A DNA stretch of 64,000 nt, from NCBI GenBank assembly GCA_045615365.1, contig JAZLEQ010000018.1, forward strand, positions 106,384 through 170,383, in the 5' to 3' direction. The notes under the pieces were generated by a model. It saw nothing but the letters and a program-made list of their open reading frames with translations, did no database searches and was not told the origin of the DNA. The first letter of the stretch is position 1. Each line of letters opens with the position of its first letter. Both the position numbers and the translations under genes were made by a program. The stretch comes from Alphaproteobacteria bacterium. Lineage in GTDB: Bacteria > Pseudomonadota > Alphaproteobacteria > RF32 > CAG-239. Of this stretch, positions 7,416 to 40,968 are shown in pieces.

Positions 7416-7574
7416 TCCGCATCATTTTTAAATTTAAAAACAAGTTACAATATTATATTTTTTTTTATTTTGCAAGTTTTAGCATTACTTTATTTTGTAT
7501 GTTGACAAAAATCACCATAAATTATACCATACGGCCGACAAAATTAAGAATATTATAATTATTAAAGTTAAAGA

Positions 7575-8084
7575 ATGAAAAAAATAACAAGAAATTTCTT
7601 ACCTGTATATAATGAAGTTATACAAGTAAAAAATTGTGTCCGATCAATGATCGGCCAAGAAATAATAGATGTTAACGTTATAATTAACATCGGATTCAAT
7701 GGACGAGAGTACGTTTCTTCAACAGAATGGATGCTCAAAACTGCTGGTAACGAAGAATGCATTTTGCCGTTTTCGATAACTCCGCAATATCCAACTTTCA
7801 TCTCTATGGTAGCCGGCACAAGTATTTCAAACAATAATGGCAACATTATGTTTGAACATAACAGCAAACAGGCCATTATAATCACGCCTGATGGCAACCA
7901 AAGAAGTTTATCTCCCGGAGAACCTGTCCGCATTGTAATAGCAGATGGAGCTAAAAACTTTGTCTGCAGCGACTGTGTAGTTGAGGTTACGGAAAATAAC
8001 GATGCCGTAACTTACACAATAATCCCTGATGAATCAACCCACTATGGGAAATTTATCAAAGGAATGATTGTTCCGGCAAATTAA
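7575..8084 (+). CDS. Hypothetical protein
   Basis: 169-aa ORF followed directly by an intrinsic terminator on the + strand. The competing antisense ORF 7568..7933 has no such support. Confidence 0.45.
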   Translation: MKKITRNFLPVYNEVIQVKNCVRSMIGQEIIDVNVIINIGFNGREYVSSTEWMLKTAGNEECILPFSITPQYPTFISMVAGTSISNNNGNIMFEHNSKQAIIITPDGNQRSLSPGEPVRIVIADGAKNFVCSDCVVEVTENNDAVTYTIIPDESTHYGKFIKGMIVPAN

Positions 8085-8094
8085 AAAAAATTTT

Positions 8095-8130
8095 TTCCCG
8101 CAAAACTTAAATTGTTTTGCGGTTTTTTTG
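8095..8130 (+). terminator. Intrinsic terminator (cccgcaaaac / gttttgcgg + T-run)
   Basis: GC-rich hairpin followed by TTTTTTT just after the 7575..8084 ORF. Confidence 0.6.
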
Positions 8131-8179
8131 TTGCCATCTGTTTTCAATACAATTATATTATCCTTTCAGGAGAATAAAT

Positions 8180-15712: not shown

Positions 15713-15781
15713 TAGTTCTTGTTAACATATTTTTAACTTTAAATCACCGCATATGTAAAGAGAAAAAATGCTCCTCTCAAA

Positions 15782-15798
15782 TTCAATCAATCGATTTA
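15782..15798. promoter_or_regulatory. Candidate TetR operator half-palindrome in the aas/tetR divergent region (TTCAATCAATCGATTTA)
   Basis: Shares TTCAATC…AATCGATT with the perfect palindrome upstream of fadL. Confidence 0.3.
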
Positions 15799-15934
15799 AC
15801 GGATATCATATTGATTTTTATAATTTTTTATCATTTTATACCAAAGTGGATAAAAAGAATATTGTCTTTTAAAAATCTTATGCTAAAACAACCGACATGT
15901 GCACAACATACATATTAATAAGGAGTGAACTTTA

Positions 15935-16573
15935 ATGGCCAACGATTCAAAAACCAAGCTGCTTTTAAGTGCTTTTGAAGAATTTGCCAAAAATGGTTTC
16001 GGAGGAGCCTCAACCCGTGATATTGCCGCCAAGGCAAATATTAATATATCATCAATCCTTTATTACTTCGGCGGAAAAAAAGGAATTTACACTGCGGCCC
16101 TTAAAAAAATTGTTGACACAATCAATCATAAAACCGCTGAACTGACAAATAGTTATCAAAATGTTATCGAACTAAAAAATCCGGAAATGGCTCGTAAATT
16201 GCTGAAAGAAATGTCGGAAAAATTCTTAAACATTCTTTGCAATAAAGATATATCGCCCGACATTAAAAAGGTTTTCTTAAGCGAATATTCGAGTCCCACA
16301 GAAGAATTTAATATTTTATACGATGAGTTGATTCGCCCTGTTCATGACCGTATGGCCAATCTTCTTCACCTTGCAAGCTCTGAAAAGATTGATATTAAAG
16401 ACTGCTATTTTTACATTGTTCCCTTATTTTCGCAGCTATTTGTTTTTGCTTCTCGCAAAGATTCCATCTGCAAATTAATGAGCTGGGAAGACTATAATGA
16501 AACAGAACAAAACAAGCTTTTACAATACACTAGCTCCCAAATTGACTTCATTTTAGACTATCTGAAAAAATAA
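15935..16573 (+). CDS. TetR/AcrR-family transcriptional regulator
   Basis: 212 aa; N-terminal TetR HTH (KLLLSAFEEFAKNGFGGASTRDIAAKANINISSILYYFGGKKGIY). Confidence 0.8.
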   Translation: MANDSKTKLLLSAFEEFAKNGFGGASTRDIAAKANINISSILYYFGGKKGIYTAALKKIVDTINHKTAELTNSYQNVIELKNPEMARKLLKEMSEKFLNILCNKDISPDIKKVFLSEYSSPTEEFNILYDELIRPVHDRMANLLHLASSEKIDIKDCYFYIVPLFSQLFVFASRKDSICKLMSWEDYNETEQNKLLQYTSSQIDFILDYLKK

Positions 16574-16586
16574 TATTCACATTTAT

Positions 16587-16627
16587 TCAATCGATTGATT
16601 GACAAATTGTTTTTTTTGTTTTATAAC
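16587..16627 (+). promoter_or_regulatory. fadL promoter (TTGACA-17-TATAAC) with overlapping 12-bp perfect palindrome TCAATCGATTGA (candidate TetR operator)
   Basis: Palindrome at 16587-16598 abuts -35 ttgaca (16599-16604); -10 tataac at 16622-16627; fadL ATG at 16665. Confidence 0.45.
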
Positions 16628-16664
16628 CCCTCTTGTGTGTTTTAACAAAAAGGACATTATACTT

Positions 16665-17912
16665 ATGAAAAAACTACTTACATATACCGCTTTAGCAGGT
16701 ATTATAGCAATTTCAAATGCCAATGCCGCAGGCTTCAACCTTCGTGAACAATCTGCCGCTGCATTGGGCAACGCATTCGCCGGTGCAACTGCCGGAGCAG
16801 AAAATATTTCATATTCATATTTTAACGCTGCCGGCTTAACAAAGCACAAAGGCACTCAAGTTCACATCGGTGGAACTCACATCGCTCCTGAAGCAAAAGC
16901 CCGCAATGTTAAAAGAGCTGGCGTCACTCCCGATTCTGATGTTGACAACATCGTTCGCGCAGCTATTGCTCCTAATTTGAGTGCGTCTCATCAATTAAAC
17001 GACAAAACCGTTATGGGCATCAGCGTAAACGTTCCTTTCGGAATGGTTACCAAATATAAAGACCGCAATTGGGCTGGTTCTGATCATGGTTTAACTTCAA
17101 AAGTTACTGCCGTAACCACAACCCCGATGGTTGCCTACAAAGCTACTGACAAATTGTCTCTCGGTGTAGGTTTGCCGATTCAATACTTCAAAGCCAAATT
17201 GTCAAACTCCGTATTGGGAATGGGCGCATCTTCATACACCAAAGTTGAAGGCGAAACTGTTGATATCGGCTATCAACTGAGCGCTATGTATGAATTCAAC
17301 GAAAACACCCGTATCGGTGTTAACTACCGTAGTGAAATCAATCACAAATTGAAAGGCGAGATTGAATCTAAATTACCGGTATCATACTTAAACCAAGACA
17401 TCTCTGCTCGTATTGATACTCCTGCTATGTTGTCAGTTGGCGGTTTCCACAAAATCAACGACAAATGGGAAGTTATGGCCGAATATCAAAAAGTGTTCTG
17501 GAATTCTTTTGACAGTATCGATATCTACGGCAAAGATTTCCCTAAAGGAACATCATACTTGCTGAGCACAACTCCCGAACATTGGGAAGATGCAAATTTC
17601 TATGCTTTGGGCGCAAGCTACAATGTTAACGACCAATGGAAAATTCGTGCTGGTATCGCTTATGACGAATCTGCTGTTCGTTTAGATTATCGCACACCTC
17701 GCGTTCCGGATTCTCGTCGTATGTGGTATTCTGCCGGTGTTGGCTATAAATACAATGAAAATCTGACCTTTGATGCTGCTTATACTTTCATCAAAGCTCG
17801 TCCGGCCAGTGTTGACTTACCTGCAACTGATGCCGGTGGACGTAAAGGCTACACTGCCGATTATAAGAACCAAGTTCATATGATTGGCTTTTCTATGAAC
17901 TACAAGTTCTAA
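16665..17912 (+). CDS. fadL: Outer-membrane long-chain fatty acid / hydrophobic compound transporter, FadL (OmpP1/FadL/TodX) family
   Basis: Signal peptide, then AAGFNLREQSAAALGNAFAGATAGAENISYSYFNAAGL (FadL N-terminal hatch signature); beta-barrel with C-terminal aromatic …FSMNYKF. Confidence 0.75.
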   Translation: MKKLLTYTALAGIIAISNANAAGFNLREQSAAALGNAFAGATAGAENISYSYFNAAGLTKHKGTQVHIGGTHIAPEAKARNVKRAGVTPDSDVDNIVRAAIAPNLSASHQLNDKTVMGISVNVPFGMVTKYKDRNWAGSDHGLTSKVTAVTTTPMVAYKATDKLSLGVGLPIQYFKAKLSNSVLGMGASSYTKVEGETVDIGYQLSAMYEFNENTRIGVNYRSEINHKLKGEIESKLPVSYLNQDISARIDTPAMLSVGGFHKINDKWEVMAEYQKVFWNSFDSIDIYGKDFPKGTSYLLSTTPEHWEDANFYALGASYNVNDQWKIRAGIAYDESAVRLDYRTPRVPDSRRMWYSAGVGYKYNENLTFDAAYTFIKARPASVDLPATDAGGRKGYTADYKNQVHMIGFSMNYKF

Positions 17913-17949
17913 GAAAAAAAAATAAAAAAACTCTGAAAACTCCCTTAAG

Positions 17950-17987
17950 AAAAACCACATTATCTCTAATGTGGTTTTTCTTTTTTT
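17950..17987 (+). terminator. Intrinsic terminator after fadL (aaaaaccacat / atgtggttttt + T-run)
   Basis: 11-bp hairpin followed by a long T-run. Confidence 0.65.
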
Positions 17988-18004
17988 AATAATCCTGATT
18001 TTAT

Positions 18005-18589
18005 TTATTCAATACAACAATCAACTGCTTTTCTGACAAAAGCTTTCATCTTGCTGAAAGCACCGCCCTCTTCTTTAACCTCAACTTCTTTCTTTTTAAC
18101 AGGTGCTTTGTTTTCTTCCAACTTTGCGGAAATCTTTTTAATATCTTCCATATTGTCTTCAACCCACTTAACATCAGATACATCAAGCATCTTCATATTA
18201 AGTCCCCAAAACAGACAATACAAATCATATGCCTGATTAAACAAACTATATGCCAAATCTTTGTTTCCTAAAGATTGTTGTTTAGTTCCCACCTCCATAA
18301 GACGCATTGATGAAGCCAACAAGTGTTTTGAAATACACCAAACTTCGCCTTCATATTCGGGAATAACTCTTTGCATTAAATTTTTGCGTAATTCTCTCAC
18401 ATTTTCAATCAAATCATAAAAACTGTTTTTACCTGTTTTTGCTCCGGAAAAAACCAAATGTTCTTCGATTGAAATAAGGTTCATAATTGCAATAGTCAAA
18501 TCCTGATCCGACGACAAATCTTTAGGATTAACCTTTTTTGAGGCATCAATTCTTTCCACGAATTCTTTTACATCTTTTGCTTTTTTCAT
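18005..18589 (-). CDS. Hypothetical protein (194 aa), C-terminal …DCCIE
   Basis: ORF translationally coupled to the upstream membrane-protein gene (stop/start overlap at 18589/18590). Confidence 0.45.
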   Translation of the reverse strand: MKKAKDVKEFVERIDASKKVNPKDLSSDQDLTIAIMNLISIEEHLVFSGAKTGKNSFYDLIENVRELRKNLMQRVIPEYEGEVWCISKHLLASSMRLMEVGTKQQSLGNKDLAYSLFNQAYDLYCLFWGLNMKMLDVSDVKWVEDNMEDIKKISAKLEENKAPVKKKEVEVKEEGGAFSKMKAFVRKAVDCCIE

Positions 18590-19156
18590 TTATTTTTCTC
18601 CCGAAAATTCATACAATCCCGAAGCATCAAGCAAACCGCTTTCCGGTGCCAATTCAACGCCGATAGGAAAATAATTAAAATAAACACTCAATATTGCCAA
18701 TGCAGCAACCGGCAATACAACCTTTTCAAACGGAAAATGTGCATGACCACCGTTTCTTGCTTTCATCCATTGATAAAATTTTGAAACATAAATAAAAGTA
18801 AGCGCACCTAAAATTGTGCTAAACAACAACGGATCCATATAGAAAATTCCGATAACCTTTGCTTGATATGGCATTGTCATATACATAAAACCGATTGATC
18901 CGACAGAAATTGCCATCATCAAAAAATCTCTTCCGAAAAAATGCCAATTTTTCTTATCGCACCACAATATCAACCAATACCCCAAAAGCGATAAAAATGC
19001 ACCGGCCCAAACCCCCACAACCGCATCATCAACGCCATATCGGCGAGCAACTTCCAAAGATGCTCCTACCGCAACGGTGCAAACCGCACAAGCAGGATTA
19101 GCAACAGCTTTCCCTGCAACCAACAACAAGGCAAACAACGATGCAAAAAACTTCAT
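18590..19156 (-). CDS. Hypothetical membrane protein with signal peptide and N-terminal CAVC motif
   Basis: 188 aa; MKFFASLFALLLVAGKAVA signal, NPACAVCTVAVG, then 4-5 predicted TM helices. Confidence 0.5.
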   Translation of the reverse strand: MKFFASLFALLLVAGKAVANPACAVCTVAVGASLEVARRYGVDDAVVGVWAGAFLSLLGYWLILWCDKKNWHFFGRDFLMMAISVGSIGFMYMTMPYQAKVIGIFYMDPLLFSTILGALTFIYVSKFYQWMKARNGGHAHFPFEKVVLPVAALAILSVYFNYFPIGVELAPESGLLDASGLYEFSGEK

Positions 19157-19280
19157 ATCAAACTTTCCTTATTTTTCTTTTAATCACATACTTATATAAA
19201 ATACATTTACTCAAAAAAAAGCAATGGCTTTTTATAATTTATCATATTATATTAGCAAAAAAGTTTAGGAATAATTACCG

Positions 19281-20315
19281 ATGCAAAATTTAATCCAAAA
19301 AGCCATAAACACTCATTCTCTTTCAAAAGAAGAAATAATCAAAATACTAAACGACGATTCTTGCGACAAACAACTTTTTAATGCCGCCGATTATATAAGA
19401 AAACAATTTGTCGGCGATGAAATTCATCTCCGTGCGTTGATTGAATTTTCCAACTTTTGCAAAAACAACTGCCTATATTGCGGCCTGAGACGTGATAATA
19501 AAAATGTTAATCGTTACCGCATGAACAGTCAAACAATCTTCAATTTAGCACAATATGCCGCACAAAATTTAGGACTTAAAACAATCGTTCTGCAATCAGG
19601 CGAAGATATGTTTTTTTCAAAAGAAAAAATGTGCGAAATAATCAAACAAATCAAAACGCTTGATGTCGCCCTCACCTTAAGTATCGGCGAAAAAAACTTG
19701 GATGAATACATCGCTTATAAAAATGCCGGTGCCGACCGCTTTTTATTGCGAATTGAAACCACCGATAAAAACCTTTATCACAAGCTTGATCCGGATATGA
19801 GTTGGGACAACCGTTTTCAATGTTTAACAGATATCAAAAATGCCGGATTGGAAGTTGGCTCCGGCATAATGGTAGGCCTTCCCGAACAAACGATTGCAAG
19901 TATTGCCGACGATATTCTTTTCTTTCAAAAAATTAATGCCGATATGATTGGAATTGGCCCGTTTATTCCTCATCCCGACACCCCCTTAAAAATCGAACAA
20001 GGAGGCAAACTCAATTTATCGCTTAAAGTAATGGCCATAACCCGCCTGCTTTTGCCGGATATCAACATCCCAGCCACAACCGCCATGGAAACACTCGAAC
20101 CAAACGGTCAACTGATGGCTTTGCAAGCCGGAGCCAATGTGATTATGCCCAATGTTACTCTGAATGAATATCGCAAACACTACGAGATATATCCCGGAAA
20201 ATCTTCAACCAATGCCACACCCGATAAAAACCTTACAAATCTTAAACAAAAAATAGCATCAATCGGGCGAAGCATCTCCTCCGATTACGGGTTTCATAAA
20301 CATATGATAAAATAA
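19281..20315 (+). CDS. hydE: Radical SAM enzyme of the HydE / biotin-synthase-like family ([FeFe]-hydrogenase maturase HydE-like)
   Basis: 344 aa; CX3CX2C (EFSNFCKNNCLYCGLRRDNKNVNRYRM), TIVLQSGED, GADRFLLRIET, IGIGPFIPHPDTPL, LLPDINIPATTAME, GANVIMPN. These blocks recall HydE. No hydF, hydG or hydrogenase gene is in the window. Confidence 0.55.
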   Translation: MQNLIQKAINTHSLSKEEIIKILNDDSCDKQLFNAADYIRKQFVGDEIHLRALIEFSNFCKNNCLYCGLRRDNKNVNRYRMNSQTIFNLAQYAAQNLGLKTIVLQSGEDMFFSKEKMCEIIKQIKTLDVALTLSIGEKNLDEYIAYKNAGADRFLLRIETTDKNLYHKLDPDMSWDNRFQCLTDIKNAGLEVGSGIMVGLPEQTIASIADDILFFQKINADMIGIGPFIPHPDTPLKIEQGGKLNLSLKVMAITRLLLPDINIPATTAMETLEPNGQLMALQAGANVIMPNVTLNEYRKHYEIYPGKSSTNATPDKNLTNLKQKIASIGRSISSDYGFHKHMIK

Positions 20316-20318
20316 AGC

Positions 20319-21020
20319 TTATTTATCCTTTTTGGGTTCGACCAAACCGCCGGAAACAATAAACTTAATTGCTTCCTCCACACTCATATCCATTTCAATA
20401 ATATCTTTTCTGGGGACAAAAATCAAAAATCCTGATGTTGGGTTAGGAGTTGTAGGGATAAACACATTAACCATCTCATCTGGCAATTTTTGTTCTATTT
20501 CCCCTTCCAAATCTGCACTCACAAGACCCAAAATCCAAATTCCCTTTCTCGGATATTCAAGCATTACAACTTTCTTGAAAGCCTGTGTCTTATTGGAAAA
20601 AACAGTTTCGAATATTTGTTTCAACAATGAATACACCGATGAAATCAACGGCATTTTTGCCACAAACCATTCTCCCAAGCGAATAAAAAATCTGCCTAAG
20701 AAACCGGCCGCAAACATACCTACCAACATTAGGAACATAATTAATACAATCAGTCCTAACCCCGGAATAGTTATCGGCAAATAACTGTCCAATTTATATT
20801 GCGGCGGCAAAAGCTTATAAACAAAAACATCAACCCACAAAATGAATTTATAAGCCAAATAAAAAGTTATCGCCACCGGAGCGGTAACTAAAATTCCCGT
20901 AAACAAATAAGCCTTCAGCTTTGAACCGAAAGCCATAAAAACTTTACGTTCCTTCTCCAATCTCTCTTTTTTAATCTTCTGAATATTTTTTGCTCTCGCT
21001 ATTGCTTTTTTATTTGCCAT
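20319..21020 (-). CDS. DUF502-family membrane protein
   Basis: 233 aa, two N-terminal TM helices and the family hallmark …NVFIPTTPNPTSGFLIFVP…. Confidence 0.7.
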   Translation of the reverse strand: MANKKAIARAKNIQKIKKERLEKERKVFMAFGSKLKAYLFTGILVTAPVAITFYLAYKFILWVDVFVYKLLPPQYKLDSYLPITIPGLGLIVLIMFLMLVGMFAAGFLGRFFIRLGEWFVAKMPLISSVYSLLKQIFETVFSNKTQAFKKVVMLEYPRKGIWILGLVSADLEGEIEQKLPDEMVNVFIPTTPNPTSGFLIFVPRKDIIEMDMSVEEAIKFIVSGGLVEPKKDK

Positions 21021-26817: not shown

Positions 26818-27999
26818 TTATTTTGTAAGATTAACCGTATCTTGAGCAATCATCAATTCTTCATCTGTAGGAATAACGAAAGCTTTAACTTTAGAACCTT
26901 TGGTAGAAATTTCTTCAACATTTCCTCTACGGCCATTGGCTTCTTCATCAATGCCGATTCCCAAATAGCTTAATCTTTCCAAAATCAATTTTCTGATAAT
27001 CGGAGAATTTTCACCGATACCGGCTGTAAACACAATTGCGTCAACACCACCTAAAGCGGCAATATAGCTACCGATAAATTTAACAATGGTATAAACATAT
27101 GTTTGCAAACCGACAACGGCATTTTCATCACCTTTCAAATATGCTGCTTCAACATCACGCATATCCGAATATCCGGTCAAACCCAACATACCGCTTTGTT
27201 TATTCAAAAGATTGTTTACTTCATCAACACTCAATTCTTGTTCCTTCATAATATGAAGCGGAATATACGGATCAATATCACCGGAACGAGTTCCCATTAT
27301 TATACCAGCCAACGGAGTAAAGCCCATTGATGTATCAATACATTGCCCGTTTTTAATAGCCGATAATGATGCACCATTACCCAAATGGCAAACAACTACT
27401 TTTGAGTTTTCACCAATAATTTTAGCCACTTCTTGTGCAATATATCTGTGAGAAGTTCCGTGCATTCCATAGCGACGAATTTGATGTTTTGTATATTGTT
27501 CCAAAGGTAAACCGTAAAGGAATGCCTCTTTAGGCATTGTTTGATGAAAAGCAGTATCAAATACTGCAACTTGAGGAACATTAGGCAAAGATTTTTCAAC
27601 AGCTCTGATACCCAATACACCGGCCGGATTATGCAATGGAGCCAAAGAAGACAATTCTTCAACTTTCTTAACCACTTCTTCATCAATTACAACGGATTTT
27701 GCGTAAACTTCACCACCATGAACAATACGGTGCCCCACAGCAGTAATTTCGTTCAAATTTTCAATAGCACCATTCAACAACAAATTGAAAACCTCTTGTA
27801 ATGCTTCGTTATGAGTAGGCAAATCTTTTTCAACTTCTTTTTTGCTTCCATCAGCATATTTAATACCAACTTTTGAACCGTTAATACCAATACGTTCTGC
27901 CAAACCTTTTGCAACAACTTCATAGTTATCACCATCAACATTAAACAACTGATATTTTAATGAAGATGAACCTGAATTCAAAACCAAAACTTTTTTCAT
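26818..27999 (-). CDS. ackA: Acetate kinase
   Basis: 393 aa; MKKVLVLNSGSSSLKYQLF…, …VHGGE…, …HLGNGASL… acetate/propionate kinase signatures. Confidence 0.9.
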   Translation of the reverse strand: MKKVLVLNSGSSSLKYQLFNVDGDNYEVVAKGLAERIGINGSKVGIKYADGSKKEVEKDLPTHNEALQEVFNLLLNGAIENLNEITAVGHRIVHGGEVYAKSVVIDEEVVKKVEELSSLAPLHNPAGVLGIRAVEKSLPNVPQVAVFDTAFHQTMPKEAFLYGLPLEQYTKHQIRRYGMHGTSHRYIAQEVAKIIGENSKVVVCHLGNGASLSAIKNGQCIDTSMGFTPLAGIIMGTRSGDIDPYIPLHIMKEQELSVDEVNNLLNKQSGMLGLTGYSDMRDVEAAYLKGDENAVVGLQTYVYTIVKFIGSYIAALGGVDAIVFTAGIGENSPIIRKLILERLSYLGIGIDEEANGRRGNVEEISTKGSKVKAFVIPTDEELMIAQDTVNLTK

Positions 28000-28041
28000 T
28001 TATTTACCCTTATCAAAAAATTAAAAAAACAACATTCAAAA

Positions 28042-29037
28042 TTACATTGCCTGAACAGCCGTCAGCGCAACCGTAAAGAAGATATCTTCAGCCGAACATC
28101 CGCGAGACAAATCATTAATCGGAGCATTCAATCCTTGCAATATCGGTCCATAAGCATCAAATCCGCCCAATCTTTGCACCAATTTATAAGCAATGTTACC
28201 GGCATCCAAATTCGGGAAAATCAAAACTTTTGCCTTTCCTGCAACCTCACTGTTCGGAGCCTTTTTAGCACCTACTGACGCAACCAATGCAGCATCACCT
28301 TGCAACTCGCCGTCAAGCTTTATTCCTAAATTCTTAAATTCATCTTTTTTCAACATTTCTTTTGCTATTTGGGTTGCATTTTGCACTTTAGAAACCAACG
28401 GTCCCTTACCCGAACCATATGTTGAAAACGACAACATTGCCACATTCGGCTCAATTCCGAATTGAATTGCCGTCTGCGAAGCCTGAATTGCAATATTGGC
28501 CAATTCTTGCTCTGTCGGATCAACCACGATTCCGCAATCGGAAAACACATAAGTATCTTCTCCTTTATCCATAAAGAAGAATGAAGAAACCCCCATATCC
28601 TTACGCGATGATTTAATAATCTGCAACGCCGGACGAACTGTATCGGCAGTTGAATGAGCTGCCCCCGAAACCATACCGTCGGCATCGCCTGATTTCATCA
28701 TCAATGTTCCGAAATAATTATTATCAAGCGCAAACTTCATTGCATCTTCTTTGCTGATTCCTTTTTCTTTGCGAAGTTCATAAAACAACTCTGCATATTT
28801 TTCAAGTTTCGGCGATGTTTTCGGATTGATGATATCAATACCGTCAAAACTCCAACCTTTTGCAGTCATCTTATTTTTTATTTCAACTTCATCACCGAGC
28901 AAAATAATCTTTGCCACTTTTTCTTTTGTTACATTATAAGCGGCTTCCAAAACTCTTTCATCTTCACCTTCCGGCAAAACAATAGTCTTAAAACCTTCTT
29001 TAGCCTTAGCCACGATTGAATCAACAAATTTAGTCAT
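28042..29037 (-). CDS. pta: Phosphate acetyltransferase (short, PTA_PTB-domain form)
   Basis: 331 aa; …IVLPEGEDERVLEAA…, …AGNIAYKLVQRLGG… typical of Pta; adjacent to ackA. Confidence 0.85.
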   Translation of the reverse strand: MTKFVDSIVAKAKEGFKTIVLPEGEDERVLEAAYNVTKEKVAKIILLGDEVEIKNKMTAKGWSFDGIDIINPKTSPKLEKYAELFYELRKEKGISKEDAMKFALDNNYFGTLMMKSGDADGMVSGAAHSTADTVRPALQIIKSSRKDMGVSSFFFMDKGEDTYVFSDCGIVVDPTEQELANIAIQASQTAIQFGIEPNVAMLSFSTYGSGKGPLVSKVQNATQIAKEMLKKDEFKNLGIKLDGELQGDAALVASVGAKKAPNSEVAGKAKVLIFPNLDAGNIAYKLVQRLGGFDAYGPILQGLNAPINDLSRGCSAEDIFFTVALTAVQAM

Positions 29038-38049: not shown

Positions 38050-38580
38050 ATGACCACAATCTTATGTATCAGAAAAAACGGTAAAGTTGTTATGGCCGGC
38101 GACGGGCAAGCAACCCTAGGCGAAGCCATTGTCTTCAAATCTCACTCGGTTAAAGTGCGCCGCATAGGCAACGGCAATATCATTGCCGGATTTGCCGGAG
38201 CTGCCGCCGACGGCATAACTTTAATTGAACGCCTTGAAGCCAAACTTGAAAAACATGCCAACCAACTCAAACGCGCTGCCGTAGAACTCGCCAAAGATTG
38301 GCGCATGGACAAATATCTGCGCCAACTCCAAGCTTTTATGATTGTGGCCGACAAAGAAACATCTTTGGTAATCTCCGGCACCGGCGAAGTTATGGAACCC
38401 GACGACGGAATCATCGGCATCGGCTCCGGTGGCAACTACGCAATGTCTGCCGCCAAAGCCTTATACGATATTGAAGGTCTAAACCTTGAAGAAATTGCCC
38501 GCAAATCAATGAAAATTGCCGGTGATATCGACATCTACACCAATCACAATGTTATTATGGAAAGTATCAACAATGACTAA
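38050..38580 (+). CDS. hslV: ATP-dependent protease subunit HslV
   Basis: 176 aa; [24 protein letters not shown]… (N-terminal Thr nucleophile after Met). Confidence 0.9.
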
Positions 38581-39880
38581 TTTCAGCCCTCGCGAAATCG
38601 TATCCGAATTGGATAAATTCATTATCGGTCAAAACGAAGCCAAAAAAGCCGTTGCCGTAGCCCTTCGCAATCGTTGGCGCCGTATGCAACTCCCCGACAA
38701 ATTAAAAGAAGAAATCGTTCCCAAAAATATCCTTATGATTGGTCCCACCGGTGTCGGCAAAACCGAAATATCGCGCCGTTTGGCCAAACTCGCCAAAGCC
38801 CCTTTTATTAAGGTTGAAGCCACCAAATTTACCGAAATCGGCTATGTCGGACGCGATGTTGAAAGCATAATCCGCGACCTTTTGGAAATTTCAATCAACC
38901 AAACTCGCAAAACTTTGCGTAAAAGTGTTTACGCCAAAGCCGAAAGCGCAGCCGAAAAACGTATTGTTGAGGCCCTGGTCGGTGCTAATGCCGGCGACGA
39001 CACCAAAACCAAATTTTTGCAAATGCTCCGCGATCATCAACTTGACGAACGCGAAGTAGAAATATCTTTGCTTGACAATTCCAATGCTTCAATGCCCACA
39101 ATCGACATCCCCGGAATGCCCGGTGCTTCAATGGGCATGATAAGCCTCGGTGATTTGCTTGGCGGCAACACACAAAAATATAAAACCCGCAAACTCAAAG
39201 TTGCCGAAGCTTTCAAATCTTTGGTTGATGAAGAATGCGACAAACTTTTGGATAACGACACCATAACCGACACCGCCATAAAATCAGTTGAAAACGACGG
39301 AATTGTATTTATCGATGAAATTGATAAAATCACAGGCAAATCGGAAGGAACACGCGGCGATGTTTCACGAGAAGGTGTCCAACGCGACCTCCTACCTTTA
39401 ATTGAAGGCACCACTGTAACCACCAAATATGGAATGGTAAAAACCGACCACATTTTGTTTATTTGTTCCGGCGCATTTCACTTGGCCAAACCGTCGGATA
39501 TGTTGCCCGAACTGCAAGGTCGTCTGCCGATAAGAGTTGAGCTTAAAGCCCTCACTCATGACGATTTCGTGCGCATCCTGACCGAACCGGAAGCCAACCT
39601 GATCGAGCAATATATAGCCCTTATGGCAACCGAAAATTTCACCTTGAAATTTGATGATAACGCCATTGATAAAATTGCCGAAATTGCCGTTGCAATCAAC
39701 GAAAATGTTGAAAATATCGGCGCCAGAAGACTTCATACCGTCTTGGAAATTTTGCTTGAAGACATAAGCTTCCAAGCTTCGGATAAAAGTGGACAAGAAG
39801 TGACCATAACCGCAGAAATGGTCGCCGAAAAATTGGAAAAATTCACCGCCAAATCCGATTTATCGAAGTTTATCTTATAA
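38573..39880 (+). CDS. hslU: ATP-dependent protease ATPase subunit HslU
   Basis: [37 protein letters not shown]…, Walker [17 protein letters not shown]; start overlaps the hslV stop. The track ORF is extended upstream. Confidence 0.9.
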
Positions 39881-40968
39881 TGAACGATTTAAGCATATAT
39901 TTCCATTGGCCCTATTGCCTGAGCAAATGCCCTTATTGCGATTTTTTCTCTAAAGTTAAAAAAAATATCGAACAAGACGAAATCATTAGGGGCTATTTGC
40001 TCTCTTTGGAAAAATATGCCGAATTCTTAGGCAATAAAAACCAAATTATCTCTGTGTTTTTCGGCGGAGGAACCCCATCGCTCATCAAACCGCAAAATAT
40101 TGAGCTTCTGCTAAACAAAATCCAAAAATTGTGGCCCCTTGCTTCAAATATTGAAATATCACTGGAAGCCAACCCCAACACTCAAACACCTACATTATTT
40201 GCCGATTTGGCTCAAGCTGGAATCAATCGTCTTTCTCTAGGGATTCAATCATTAGACGACAATCAATTAAAATTTTTGGGACGAACTCACAATTCCAAAC
40301 AAGCTCTAACCGCTATTGAAGACGTGAAAAAAAACTTTTCCAATCATTCTGTTGATCTCATATATGCCCTGCCCACACAAACAATCGCATCTTGGCAGAA
40401 CGACCTCAAAAAAGTTACCTCTCTTGGCATGAAACACATTTCTCTTTATCAGCTTACCATTGAAGAAAACACTTTCTTCCATAAAAAAGGCATCAAACCT
40501 GCCGATGAAGAAACAGCATCGCAAATGTATTTATTAAGCGAAGACACCTTAGCTCAAAAAGGCTATGATAAATATGAAGTTTCAAATTATGCTCAAAAAG
40601 ACTTTGAATCGGTTCATAATCAAGTATATTGGAAAGGCGGAAACTATATCGGTATCGGCGAAACAGCTCATGGTCGTCTGAAAAAAAACGACAAATTCTA
40701 TGCCATAACACATCCCATGCAATTTGAAGAACTCTCCCCACATGAACGTGCCGAAGAATTGATTATCATGGGGCTCCGCCTTGTTAGCGGCATTCATAAG
40801 GCTGATTTTGAAAAAAATTGCGGAATTGATATCAACAATATAATCAATAAAGAATTTAAGGATAATGCCATCAAAGAAGGATTGCTGAAAGAAACCTCTT
40901 CCCACTTATTTGCAACCAAACAAGGTTTTTTATTACTTGATTATCTTATCAATGGTCTTTGTTGTTAA
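39880..40968 (+). CDS. hemW: Radical SAM heme chaperone HemW (HemN-like, oxygen-independent coproporphyrinogen-III oxidase family)
   Basis: 362 aa; …IYFHWPYCLSKCPYCDFFS… CX3CX2C motif, …FFGGGTPSL…; start overlaps the hslU stop. Confidence 0.85.
   Translation: MNDLSIYFHWPYCLSKCPYCDFFSKVKKNIEQDEIIRGYLLSLEKYAEFLGNKNQIISVFFGGGTPSLIKPQNIELLLNKIQKLWPLASNIEISLEANPNTQTPTLFADLAQAGINRLSLGIQSLDDNQLKFLGRTHNSKQALTAIEDVKKNFSNHSVDLIYALPTQTIASWQNDLKKVTSLGMKHISLYQLTIEENTFFHKKGIKPADEETASQMYLLSEDTLAQKGYDKYEVSNYAQKDFESVHNQVYWKGGNYIGIGETAHGRLKKNDKFYAITHPMQFEELSPHERAEELIIMGLRLVSGIHKADFEKNCGIDINNIINKEFKDNAIKEGLLKETSSHLFATKQGFLLLDYLINGLCC

Follow-up and report, generated by a model that had tools for sequence, protein, structure and literature searches.

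HydE and its closest described relatives

HydE is a radical SAM enzyme and one of the three maturases that assemble the H-cluster, the active site of [FeFe]-hydrogenase. The enzyme of Thermotoga maritima converts the HydG product, [Fe(Cys)(CO)2(CN)], towards the [2Fe] precursor, and two residues of its catalytic cavity, M224 and M291, have been named as functionally important (PMC10114646). HydE proteins form two subsets, with or without an auxiliary Fe-S cluster that is non-essential, and non-natural thiazolidines are also accepted in vitro (PMC10114646). PylB (methylornithine synthase) and BioB (biotin synthase) belong to the same radical SAM plus BATS branch of the superfamily. The hydE gene of T. 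maritima presumably lies outside any hydE-hydG-hydF operon, as does the gene described here. Scattered hyd genes are documented for gut Alphaproteobacteria. For Azospirillum sp. CAG:239, Azospirillum sp. CAG:260 and Acetobacter sp. CAG:977, HydA, HydE, HydF and HydG have been listed with non-adjacent accessions (Degli Esposti et al. 2016, PMC4967309, Table 1), and [FeFe]-hydrogenases of two types occur in these organisms (PMC4967309).

The stretch of DNA analysed here, 64 kb in full and called the window below, carries a hydE gene divergent from two small genes, m188 and p194. Our preferred reading, to which we give a probability of about 0.8, is that the gene encodes an ordinary HydE maturase doing its usual job with partners encoded elsewhere in the genome, and that the m188-p194 pair is an independent cassette.

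Layout of the locus

The three open reading frames in Table 1, with the motifs quoted from them in an earlier note on this DNA, are exactly where that note had placed them. The stop codon of m188 (18590-18592) abuts the ATG of p194 (18587-18589), so the two genes are translationally coupled, in agreement with the earlier description of a divergent, coupled pair encoding a CxxC membrane protein and a 194-aa protein with a CC tail. The spacer presumably holds promoters for both m188 and hydE. A consensus promoter scan of 17800-20500 returned 10 sites compared with 9.1 in shuffled sequence, and none in the spacer was convincing. The hairpin sits between the convergent ends of p194 and a FadL-like porin gene, identified through the Toluene_X Pfam match of its homologue at locus L005, and is likely a bidirectional terminator closing the m188-p194 operon.

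Table 1. Features of the hydE locus (positions in the window)
Feature	Position	Strand	Description	Basis
hydE	19281..20315	+	344 aa, radical SAM [FeFe]-hydrogenase H-cluster maturase	profile, Pfam and PDB matches, conserved residues
m188	18590..19156	-	188 aa, contains ANPACAVCTVA	ORF list
p194	18005..18589	-	194 aa, ends VDCCIE	ORF list
Divergent spacer m188/hydE	19157..19280		124 bp	coordinates from ORFs
Hairpin	17947..17982		16-bp stem followed by a T-run	terminator-like scan

Identity of the 344-aa protein

The radical SAM motif CX3CX2C is present as CKNNCLYC, with C58, C62 and C65 (ORF list and motif scan). All six sequence blocks quoted earlier (EFSNFCKNNCLYCGLRRDNKNVNRYRM, TIVLQSGED, GADRFLLRIET, IGIGPFIPHPDTPL, LLPDINIPATTAME and GANVIMPN) occur in the translation. 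In a search with NCBIfam profiles the protein scored 369.3 bits on TIGR03956, the HydE equivalog, for which the cut-off is 254.6. The second-best family was PylB (TIGR03910; 168.5 against a cut-off of 348.2), and BioB (TIGR00433; 111.6 against 225), HmdB (79.3 against 320.9), ThiH (63.1 against 380) and HydG all remained below their thresholds. Radical_SAM (PF04055, 1.1e-18) and BATS (PF06968, 2e-05) are the Pfam domains detected, and the length of 344 aa lies within the range of about 340-360 aa expected of a HydE TIM-barrel protein. Among known structures, T. maritima HydE chains match at E=5e-106 (query residues 16-342 against chain residues 31-354), whereas PylB matches at 6e-28 and BioB at best at 5e-15. 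That the protein is a misassigned relative from the BioB, PylB, HmdB or ThiH families is therefore hardly credible, even though the Radical_SAM plus BATS architecture is common to both sides and HydE sequences have in the past been mislabelled as BioB (PMC10114646). The BioB or PylB affiliation that had been weighed against HydE thus falls away on the profile scores, and the assignment to the HydE family stands.

Conserved residues were compared over columns invariant in eight reference HydEs, seven of them encoded in hydE-hydG-hydF operons and the eighth from T. maritima. The protein retains 75 of the 81 invariant columns, and its M222 and M289 align to M224 and M291 of the T. maritima enzyme, which has been characterised structurally (PDB 3CIW, 3CIX, 5FEW and others) and biochemically. 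The likeness to that enzyme thus extends over the full length and includes the CX3CX2C motif. The earlier expression "near-identical to Thermotoga HydE" is apt for the motif blocks but not for the whole protein, where identity is 52%. Further differences are S, N and N in place of the auxiliary-cluster cysteines C311, C319 and C322, and four substitutions at reference-invariant sites (Y156F, H160I, R279Q and P296L in T. maritima numbering) that characterize the clade of the window protein. The auxiliary cysteines do not define HydE, since both subsets exist (PMC10114646); they are present in the related HydE of locus L058. The six columns that are not retained are shared, by identity or by column, with the relatives at L002, L066 or L058, and the organisms or contigs of these three carry HydF or HydA. 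Judged by the equivalog score, the full-length match to the T. maritima enzyme and the retention of invariant residues, the gene encodes a bona fide HydE.

Lineage and lifestyle of the host

The window HydE shares 80% identity with its nearest database match, and relatives at 62-80% identity come from MAGs of gut and rumen origin that carry the label Alphaproteobacteria or "uncultured Azospirillum sp." (the title, for example, of locus L027). Genes for FlaF, FlgH, FlgA, FlgG and FlgF at 1.6-5.6 kb in the window, together with the labels of the relatives, support the flagellated alphaproteobacterium proposed earlier. The aerobic, endosymbiont-like lineage proposed with it is not supported. Genes for flavodiiron proteins, PerR and rubrerythrin are typical of anaerobes, and a block of hydE, flavodiiron, Fur/PerR and rubrerythrin genes is found in 14 of the 15 species-representative loci of relatives. 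Pta and AckA are encoded in the window itself. From this block, these two enzymes and the gut and rumen origin of the relatives, the host is, as far as its genes tell, an uncultured, flagellated, fermentative and anaerobic alphaproteobacterium of a gut and rumen clade. Record titles and habitat, rather than a tree, suggest that this is the clade of PMC4967309. The HydE proteins reported there resemble the present one in coming from uncultured gut Alphaproteobacteria and in being encoded apart from hydF and hydG.

Partner genes in the window and in relatives

No hydA, hydF or hydG was detected in the 64 kb by motif scan or by tblastn with HydG, HydF and HydA queries, in accord with what had been noted for the surroundings of hydE. 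The queries were taken from hyd clusters. HydF chains in the PDB bore out the identity of the HydF query, and motif, size and place in the operon served to identify those for HydG and HydA.

Partner genes have been found in several relatives. Locus L058 encodes a homologue of p194, a HydE with 61% identity to that of the window and, 3.7 kb from hydE, a HydF whose HydF_dimer and HydF_tetramer domains mark it as genuine. At L066 an m188-p194 pair is divergent to a HydE gene (65% identical product), and HydC-HydB-HydA are encoded 8-10 kb away. At L123 an alphaproteobacterial HydF gene adjoins two Fe_hyd_lg_C genes. P0007, a HydE with 75% identity whose gene order is that of the window (MBE6444213.1), is 321 accession numbers from a HydF, P0469 (MBE6444534.1); both are titled "Alphaproteobacteria bacterium" and apparently come from one MAG, going by accession proximity and not by an assembly identifier. 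The HydF locus L119 encodes HslV and HslU that match those of the window at 85% and 83%; there hydF is found some 4.5 kb upstream of hslV, a position occupied by other genes in the window. HydG was not seen in the alphaproteobacterial loci examined, so for this protein the clade is covered by the list in PMC4967309. Three candidates were set aside. The tblastn match to HydF at L071 proved to be MnmE, and at L030 (Pectinatus) a radical SAM gene of 470 aa is HemN-like and not HydG. The cluster of hydE, TM1266-like, ammonia-lyase and hydF genes at L126, from a MAG labelled Alphaproteobacteria, contains a HydE of a different lineage (45% identical) and does not count as evidence for the clade.

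The earlier note had suggested an orphan HydE with a different substrate. In such a genome hydA, hydF and hydG would have been lost, and HydE would act on some other substrate that contains sulfur or cysteine. Such a change would be of interest because the chemistry of HydE has been settled only recently, and it would fit the lack of any hyd partner within 64 kb, the other genes found where L119 has hydF, the four clade substitutions and the tolerance of the enzyme for non-natural thiazolidines in vitro (PMC10114646). We regard it as very improbable. The same four substitutions occur at L066 and L002, in organisms with HydABC or HydF; most invariant residues and both cavity methionines are kept; dispersal of the hyd genes is documented as normal for the clade (PMC4967309); and 64 kb is a small share of a genome. 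With HydF and HydA found in relatives and all four hyd genes listed in PMC4967309, this HydE has most likely kept its usual function and is not an orphan. A full set of hyd genes at other sites, the outcome that would make for ordinary maturation, is thus found for the lineage, with HydG from PMC4967309 only, and is extrapolated for the window's genome, in which hydF, hydG and hydA are probably present by analogy with the relatives.

As an ordinary maturase, and by the mechanism described for the T. maritima enzyme, the window HydE would take [Fe(Cys)(CO)2(CN)] from HydG and convert it towards the [2Fe] precursor, which would pass to HydF and from there to HydA. Since hyd genes are scattered in the clade, hydF, hydG and the [FeFe]-hydrogenase genes of this host would be expected outside the 64 kb.

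The m188 and p194 proteins

The N-terminus of m188 is signal-like. In the family alignment its CxxC (C23/C26) is invariant and is the only conserved cysteine pair, and a loop with the sequence NGGHAxFPFxKV is conserved. About four transmembrane helices, with the CxxC on the extracytoplasmic side, are suggested by hydrophobicity and the positive-inside rule. A single-sequence AF2 model was poor (pLDDT 52). Of 46 environmental loci, 39 have the gene directly upstream of a p194 homologue, as do most of the gut loci.

The partner protein p194 is predicted to be soluble and cytoplasmic, with an N-terminal four-helix bundle at about residues 25-131; the AF2 core has pLDDT above 90. A variable, K/E-rich linker follows and leads to an invariant C-terminal [DN]CCxE. 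Invariant positions are D24, D30, E42, E43, H44, R65, R68, E82, W84, K88, R96, E99, C191 and E194, and C192 is nearly so (at least 90%). It has more than 8000 close homologues, every one labelled "hypothetical", and the family comprises 510 clusters at 50% identity. A Foldseek search of the model against the PDB gave no significant fold match (best E=0.2, a generic helical bundle), and neither p194 nor m188 has a Pfam or NCBIfam match at E<=0.01.

The pair beside hydE and elsewhere

In the window, in the species of P0007 and in all 15 species-representative loci with enough flank, m188 is upstream of hydE and divergent to it, and in these 15 related species the distance is at most 7 kb. Arrangements like that of the window are also found at L002-L004, L008 and L066. 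The outer contexts of the window and of its relatives are different, and the pair and hydE are the sole neighbours common to both. Up to three unrelated genes intervene between the pair and hydE, and four related species keep m188 without an adjacent p194. The unrelated genes for SulP, flavodiiron protein, PerR and rubrerythrin are no less constant in position than the pair.

Both partners also occur apart. Outside the family of the window, the pair is without hydE in reach at 21 of 24 loci (11 of 11 environmental and 10 of 13 gut-like), counting only those flanked by 8 kb or more on each side. Conversely, hydE is found without an adjoining pair at L005 and L006 and at loci of Gastranaerophilales, Elusimicrobiaceae and Clostridia; the gene has apparently been transferred to and from Gastranaerophilales and Elusimicrobia. 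The co-occurrence of pair and radical SAM gene that had been raised earlier is seen among related species and is mostly lacking beyond them. The m188-p194 pair is a separate, widespread and unannotated cassette of two or three genes. In many genomes the third gene encodes an exported CxxC protein of thioredoxin fold, for which the 64-kb window has no homologue. Thioredoxin-like, DsbD_2, Thioredoxin_3, ArsR and ArsP_1 genes are other recurrent neighbours in some loci.

Cooperation between HydE and the pair, for example with the CC tail of p194 carrying or receiving a cysteine- or iron-bound intermediate, is one way to read this neighbourhood. The short divergent spacer and its counterparts at related loci would suit it, as would the persistence of m188 upstream of hydE across the related species and across a change of outer context, and the (near-)invariant CC of p194 recalls the cysteine-bound iron complex that is the HydE substrate (PMC10114646). 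We consider it very improbable, given that each partner is so often found without the other, that unrelated genes may intervene, that p194 may be missing from beside m188, and that the recurrent neighbours of the cassette elsewhere are thioredoxin-like, DsbD_2, ArsR and ArsP genes. A stricter form, in which hydE, m188 and p194 are a functional trio and the pair supplies a HydE altered at four otherwise invariant residues with a thiol- or iron-bound species, or accepts one for it, is very unlikely because the cassette occurs so many times without hydE. If true, H-cluster maturation would have an accessory branch that is new, or HydE a new substrate. The position of the pair beside hydE fits inherited synteny and not a functional partnership, since many cassette loci lack hydE and unrelated genes are equally stable in position.

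As for the independent cassette itself, a role in envelope thiol-disulfide or metal handling is our working guess. The cassette recalls envelope thiol systems of the DsbA/DsbB or CcdA/thioredoxin type in its membrane protein with an extracytoplasmic CxxC, whose gene often adjoins one for an exported thioredoxin-like CxxC protein. It differs from them in matching no known family by sequence or fold (m188 by sequence profiles only), in the single conserved cysteine pair of m188, and in the need for a cytoplasmic partner, a four-helix-bundle protein with a CCxE tail. The likeness is a resemblance in parts and not membership.

Significance

A normal maturase at this locus belongs to a gut alphaproteobacterial clade that already figures in the debate on an alphaproteobacterial origin of eukaryotic hydrogenases. 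Modest by-products of the comparison are direct loci with hydE, hydF and hydABC in this clade and several HydE substitutions that are specific to the clade and fall at sites that are otherwise invariant. The unannotated cassette of CxxC membrane, CC-tailed helical-bundle and thioredoxin-like proteins is a modest lead as well, and is worth a family description.

Gene layout in the window

The radical SAM gene hydE is divergent to a pair of genes of the opposite strand, which encode a CxxC membrane protein (m188) and a partner with a CC tail (p194). The end of the m188 ORF meets the start of the p194 ORF on the same strand, and the pair is therefore translationally coupled; 124 bp separate m188 from hydE. 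The three ORFs have exactly the coordinates that the earlier note claimed, and all the motifs quoted there are found in the translations. The flagellated context is likewise confirmed by FlaF, FlgH, FlgA, FlgG and FlgF. GC skew is strongly negative across most of the window, positive at about 52-60 kb and negative again after, a pattern that probably tracks gene strand.

Features of the window discussed in the text
Feature	Position	Strand	Remark
p194	18005-18589	-	194-aa ORF
m188	18590-19156	-	188-aa ORF
hydE	19281-20315	+	344-aa ORF
Acetate kinase and phosphotransacetylase genes	26818-29037	-	adjacent
hslV-hslU-hemW	38050-40968	+	syntenic with L119 (a hydF locus), 15764-18679

Identity of the radical SAM protein

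Assignment of the 344-aa protein to HydE is supported. It scores 369.3 bits against the NCBIfam equivalog TIGR03956 (cut-off 254.6), and falls far below the cut-offs of the PylB (168.5 vs 348.2), BioB (111.6 vs 225), HmdB, HydG and ThiH profiles. In a PDB search it aligned end to end with Thermotoga maritima HydE (TmHydE; E=5e-106), the next match being PylB (E=6e-28). When aligned with eight references, TmHydE and seven HydEs from hydE-hydG-hydF operons (Clostridia and Bacteroidales loci), it keeps 75 of the 81 columns invariant among them. The TIGR03956 score, the TmHydE match and these columns bear out the description as a HydE-like radical SAM protein. The further description as near-identical to the Thermotoga enzyme holds for the motif blocks but not for the whole protein, where identity is 52%.

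Both M224 and M291 of TmHydE, which bind and relay the Fe(CO)2CN species according to a structural review (PMC10114646), are conserved in the alignment. Unlike TmHydE, the window protein has none of the three auxiliary-cluster cysteines; according to the review (PMC10114646), this cluster is not essential and some HydEs lack it. The cysteines are present in the HydE of a related contig, L058. Four of the six deviating positions, F154, I158, Q277 and L294 (Y156F, H160I, R279Q and P296L in TmHydE numbering; all invariant in the eight references), are shared with the relatives L002 and L066 and are therefore a clade trait.

Partner hyd genes

No second hyd gene was found in the 64-kb window by motif scan or tblastn, as the earlier note had claimed for hydF, hydG and hydrogenase. 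The scan for HydA H-cluster signatures, radical SAM motifs and P-loops gave only HemW, HslU and similar proteins. Searches by tblastn with HydG, HydF and HydA from hyd gene clusters returned nothing except HydE itself; the HydF query was verified with PDB HydF chains, and motif, size and operon position served to identify those for HydG and HydA. The reading of this HydE as an orphan in an aerobe, with a new substrate, is not supported; relatives carry HydF and HydA.

Apart from the window, its HydE sequence was located only on a 2-kb Logan contig, and the arrangement was judged from relatives. For example, contig L058 encodes a p194 homologue (72% identity) and a HydE (61%), and at 3.7 kb from its hydE a genuine HydF with HydF_dimer and HydF_tetramer domains. 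As a query this HydF retrieved several HydFs labelled 'Alphaproteobacteria bacterium', among them P0469 (MBE6444534.1), whose accession is 321 numbers away from that of the HydE P0007 (MBE6444213.1). The P0007 locus has the gene order of the window (Aas-TetR-p194-m188 divergent to hydE, then DUF502-RecJ-OmpA) at 74-95% protein identity, and L119 matches the window in HslV (85%) and HslU (83%). From the accession proximity and the HslV/HslU match, P0007 and P0469 very probably reside in one MAG. Just upstream of hslV-hslU-hemW, L119 has hydF-trmB-pntBA-chrA and the window has ComM, a trypsin-like protease and MarC.

L066 reproduces exactly the divergent arrangement of m188-p194 and hydE seen in the window, and an operon for a trimeric [FeFe]-hydrogenase (NuoE-like, NuoF-like, HydA) lies 8-10 kb away. 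On the alphaproteobacterial MAG contig L123 (2865-11215; see also L124), HydF adjoins two Fe_hyd_lg_C genes, accompanied by a SpoIIE phosphatase and two small 2Fe-2S thioredoxin-like genes; these hydrogenase genes may form a sensory (HydS-type) module. Degli Esposti et al. (2016) list HydA, HydE, HydF and HydG in three genomes of gut Alphaproteobacteria, where the HydE accessions are distant from the HydF and HydG ones (PMC4967309). HydG was seen in none of the alphaproteobacterial loci examined here, and is known for the clade from that study. All in all, to find hydE alone within 64 kb is normal for this clade.

Relatives and lifestyle

Closest to the window HydE (62-80% identity) are proteins from metagenome-assembled genomes of gut and rumen, under the labels 'Alphaproteobacteria bacterium', 'uncultured proteobacterium' or 'uncultured Azospirillum sp.'. 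Identity is 58-65% for HydEs of Gastranaerophilales and other Melainabacteria, Elusimicrobiaceae and a Clostridium MAG (L019, L023, L025, L026), and this level across those groups suggests HydE exchange among gut anaerobes. The HydF of the clade is 63-67% identical to that of Desulfovibrionaceae; HydE and HydF may have had differing transfer histories. In a MAG contig labelled Alphaproteobacteria (L126, 3057-7230), hydE and hydF stand in a classical maturation cluster together with a TM1266-like gene and one resembling aspartate ammonia-lyase. The HydE encoded there shares only 45% identity with that of the window, so at least two HydE lineages occur under this label.

Flavodiiron protein, Fur/PerR and rubrerythrin make up an oxygen-defence set typical of anaerobes. 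Their genes follow hydE in 14/15 species-representative alphaproteobacterial loci (L007-L024, L036; e.g., L009 10001-13407), and in 13 of those species a SulP transporter lies between m188 and hydE. The block is absent around the window hydE. The acetate kinase/phosphotransacetylase pair of the window is consistent with fermentative acetate formation. Nothing was found in support of the aerobic, endosymbiont-like lineage previously proposed; the gut and rumen relatives, the anaerobe-type neighbours of hydE in related species and the Pta and AckA of the window all speak against it.

The m188-p194 cassette

Neither protein has a Pfam or NCBIfam match. The N-terminus of m188 is signal-like, and the protein carries about four TM helices, an invariant CxxC and a conserved NGGHAxFPFxKV loop; by the positive-inside rule, the CxxC would face outward and the loop inward. 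The p194 family comprises 510 clusters at 50% identity, and more than 100 gut sequences, all annotated 'hypothetical', are 84-96% identical to p194. In the alignment D24, D30, E42-E43-H44, R65, R68, E82, W84, K88, R96 and E99 are invariant and C85 and H89 nearly so (core signature EEH...E..C..KH), and a variable linker leads to a C-terminal [DN]CCxE. Residues ~25-131 are predicted with confidence by AlphaFold to form a four-helix bundle, for which the PDB offered no significant counterpart (best E=0.2). Some family members of ~345 aa (P0262, P0263, P0267) show three matched stretches, the bundle domain being repeated in tandem.

Scanning metagenomes with the p194 alignment gave 80 loci. m188 lies directly upstream of p194 in contigs from the gut and also in distant environmental ones, where p194 is ~50-55% and m188 31-41% identical; the two form a conserved, unannotated cassette (L039-L118) whose range spans gut Alphaproteobacteria and distant environmental bacteria. 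The pair is preceded by an exported thioredoxin-like CxxC protein in 28/46 environmental loci, and a thioredoxin-like CxxC gene comes after p194 in many gut loci; this third member has no counterpart in the window. A few loci also have ArsR, Thioredoxin_3, an ArsP_1 permease, DsbD_2 or ferredoxin. Because of these neighbours and the thioredoxin-like protein, one might very tentatively guess at a role in envelope thiol or metal handling.

In the family closest to the window, hydE invariably has m188 upstream in divergent orientation (116-6903 bp). Where the flanks reach 8 kb or more on both sides of p194, hydE was absent in 11/11 environmental and 10/13 gut-like loci. Conversely, hydE occurs without the pair in all non-alphaproteobacterial loci and in L005 and L006, despite an outer context like that of the window. 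SulP, flavodiiron, PerR and rubrerythrin hold their positions as strongly as m188 in the closest family, and four related species (L007, L008, L010, L012) keep m188 without an adjacent p194; in L008 the p194 slot (7563-8147) spans 585 bp and lacks a convincing ORF. Inherited synteny explains the m188-hydE adjacency. Functional coupling is a residual possibility, because the pair and hydE are the sole block common to two different outer contexts.

Judged by its sequence, the window HydE is a new member of a known family, at most 80% identical to the proteins compared, from a clade in which a full hyd system is already documented. The m188-p194 cassette, a widespread unannotated family, is the only mildly novel element.
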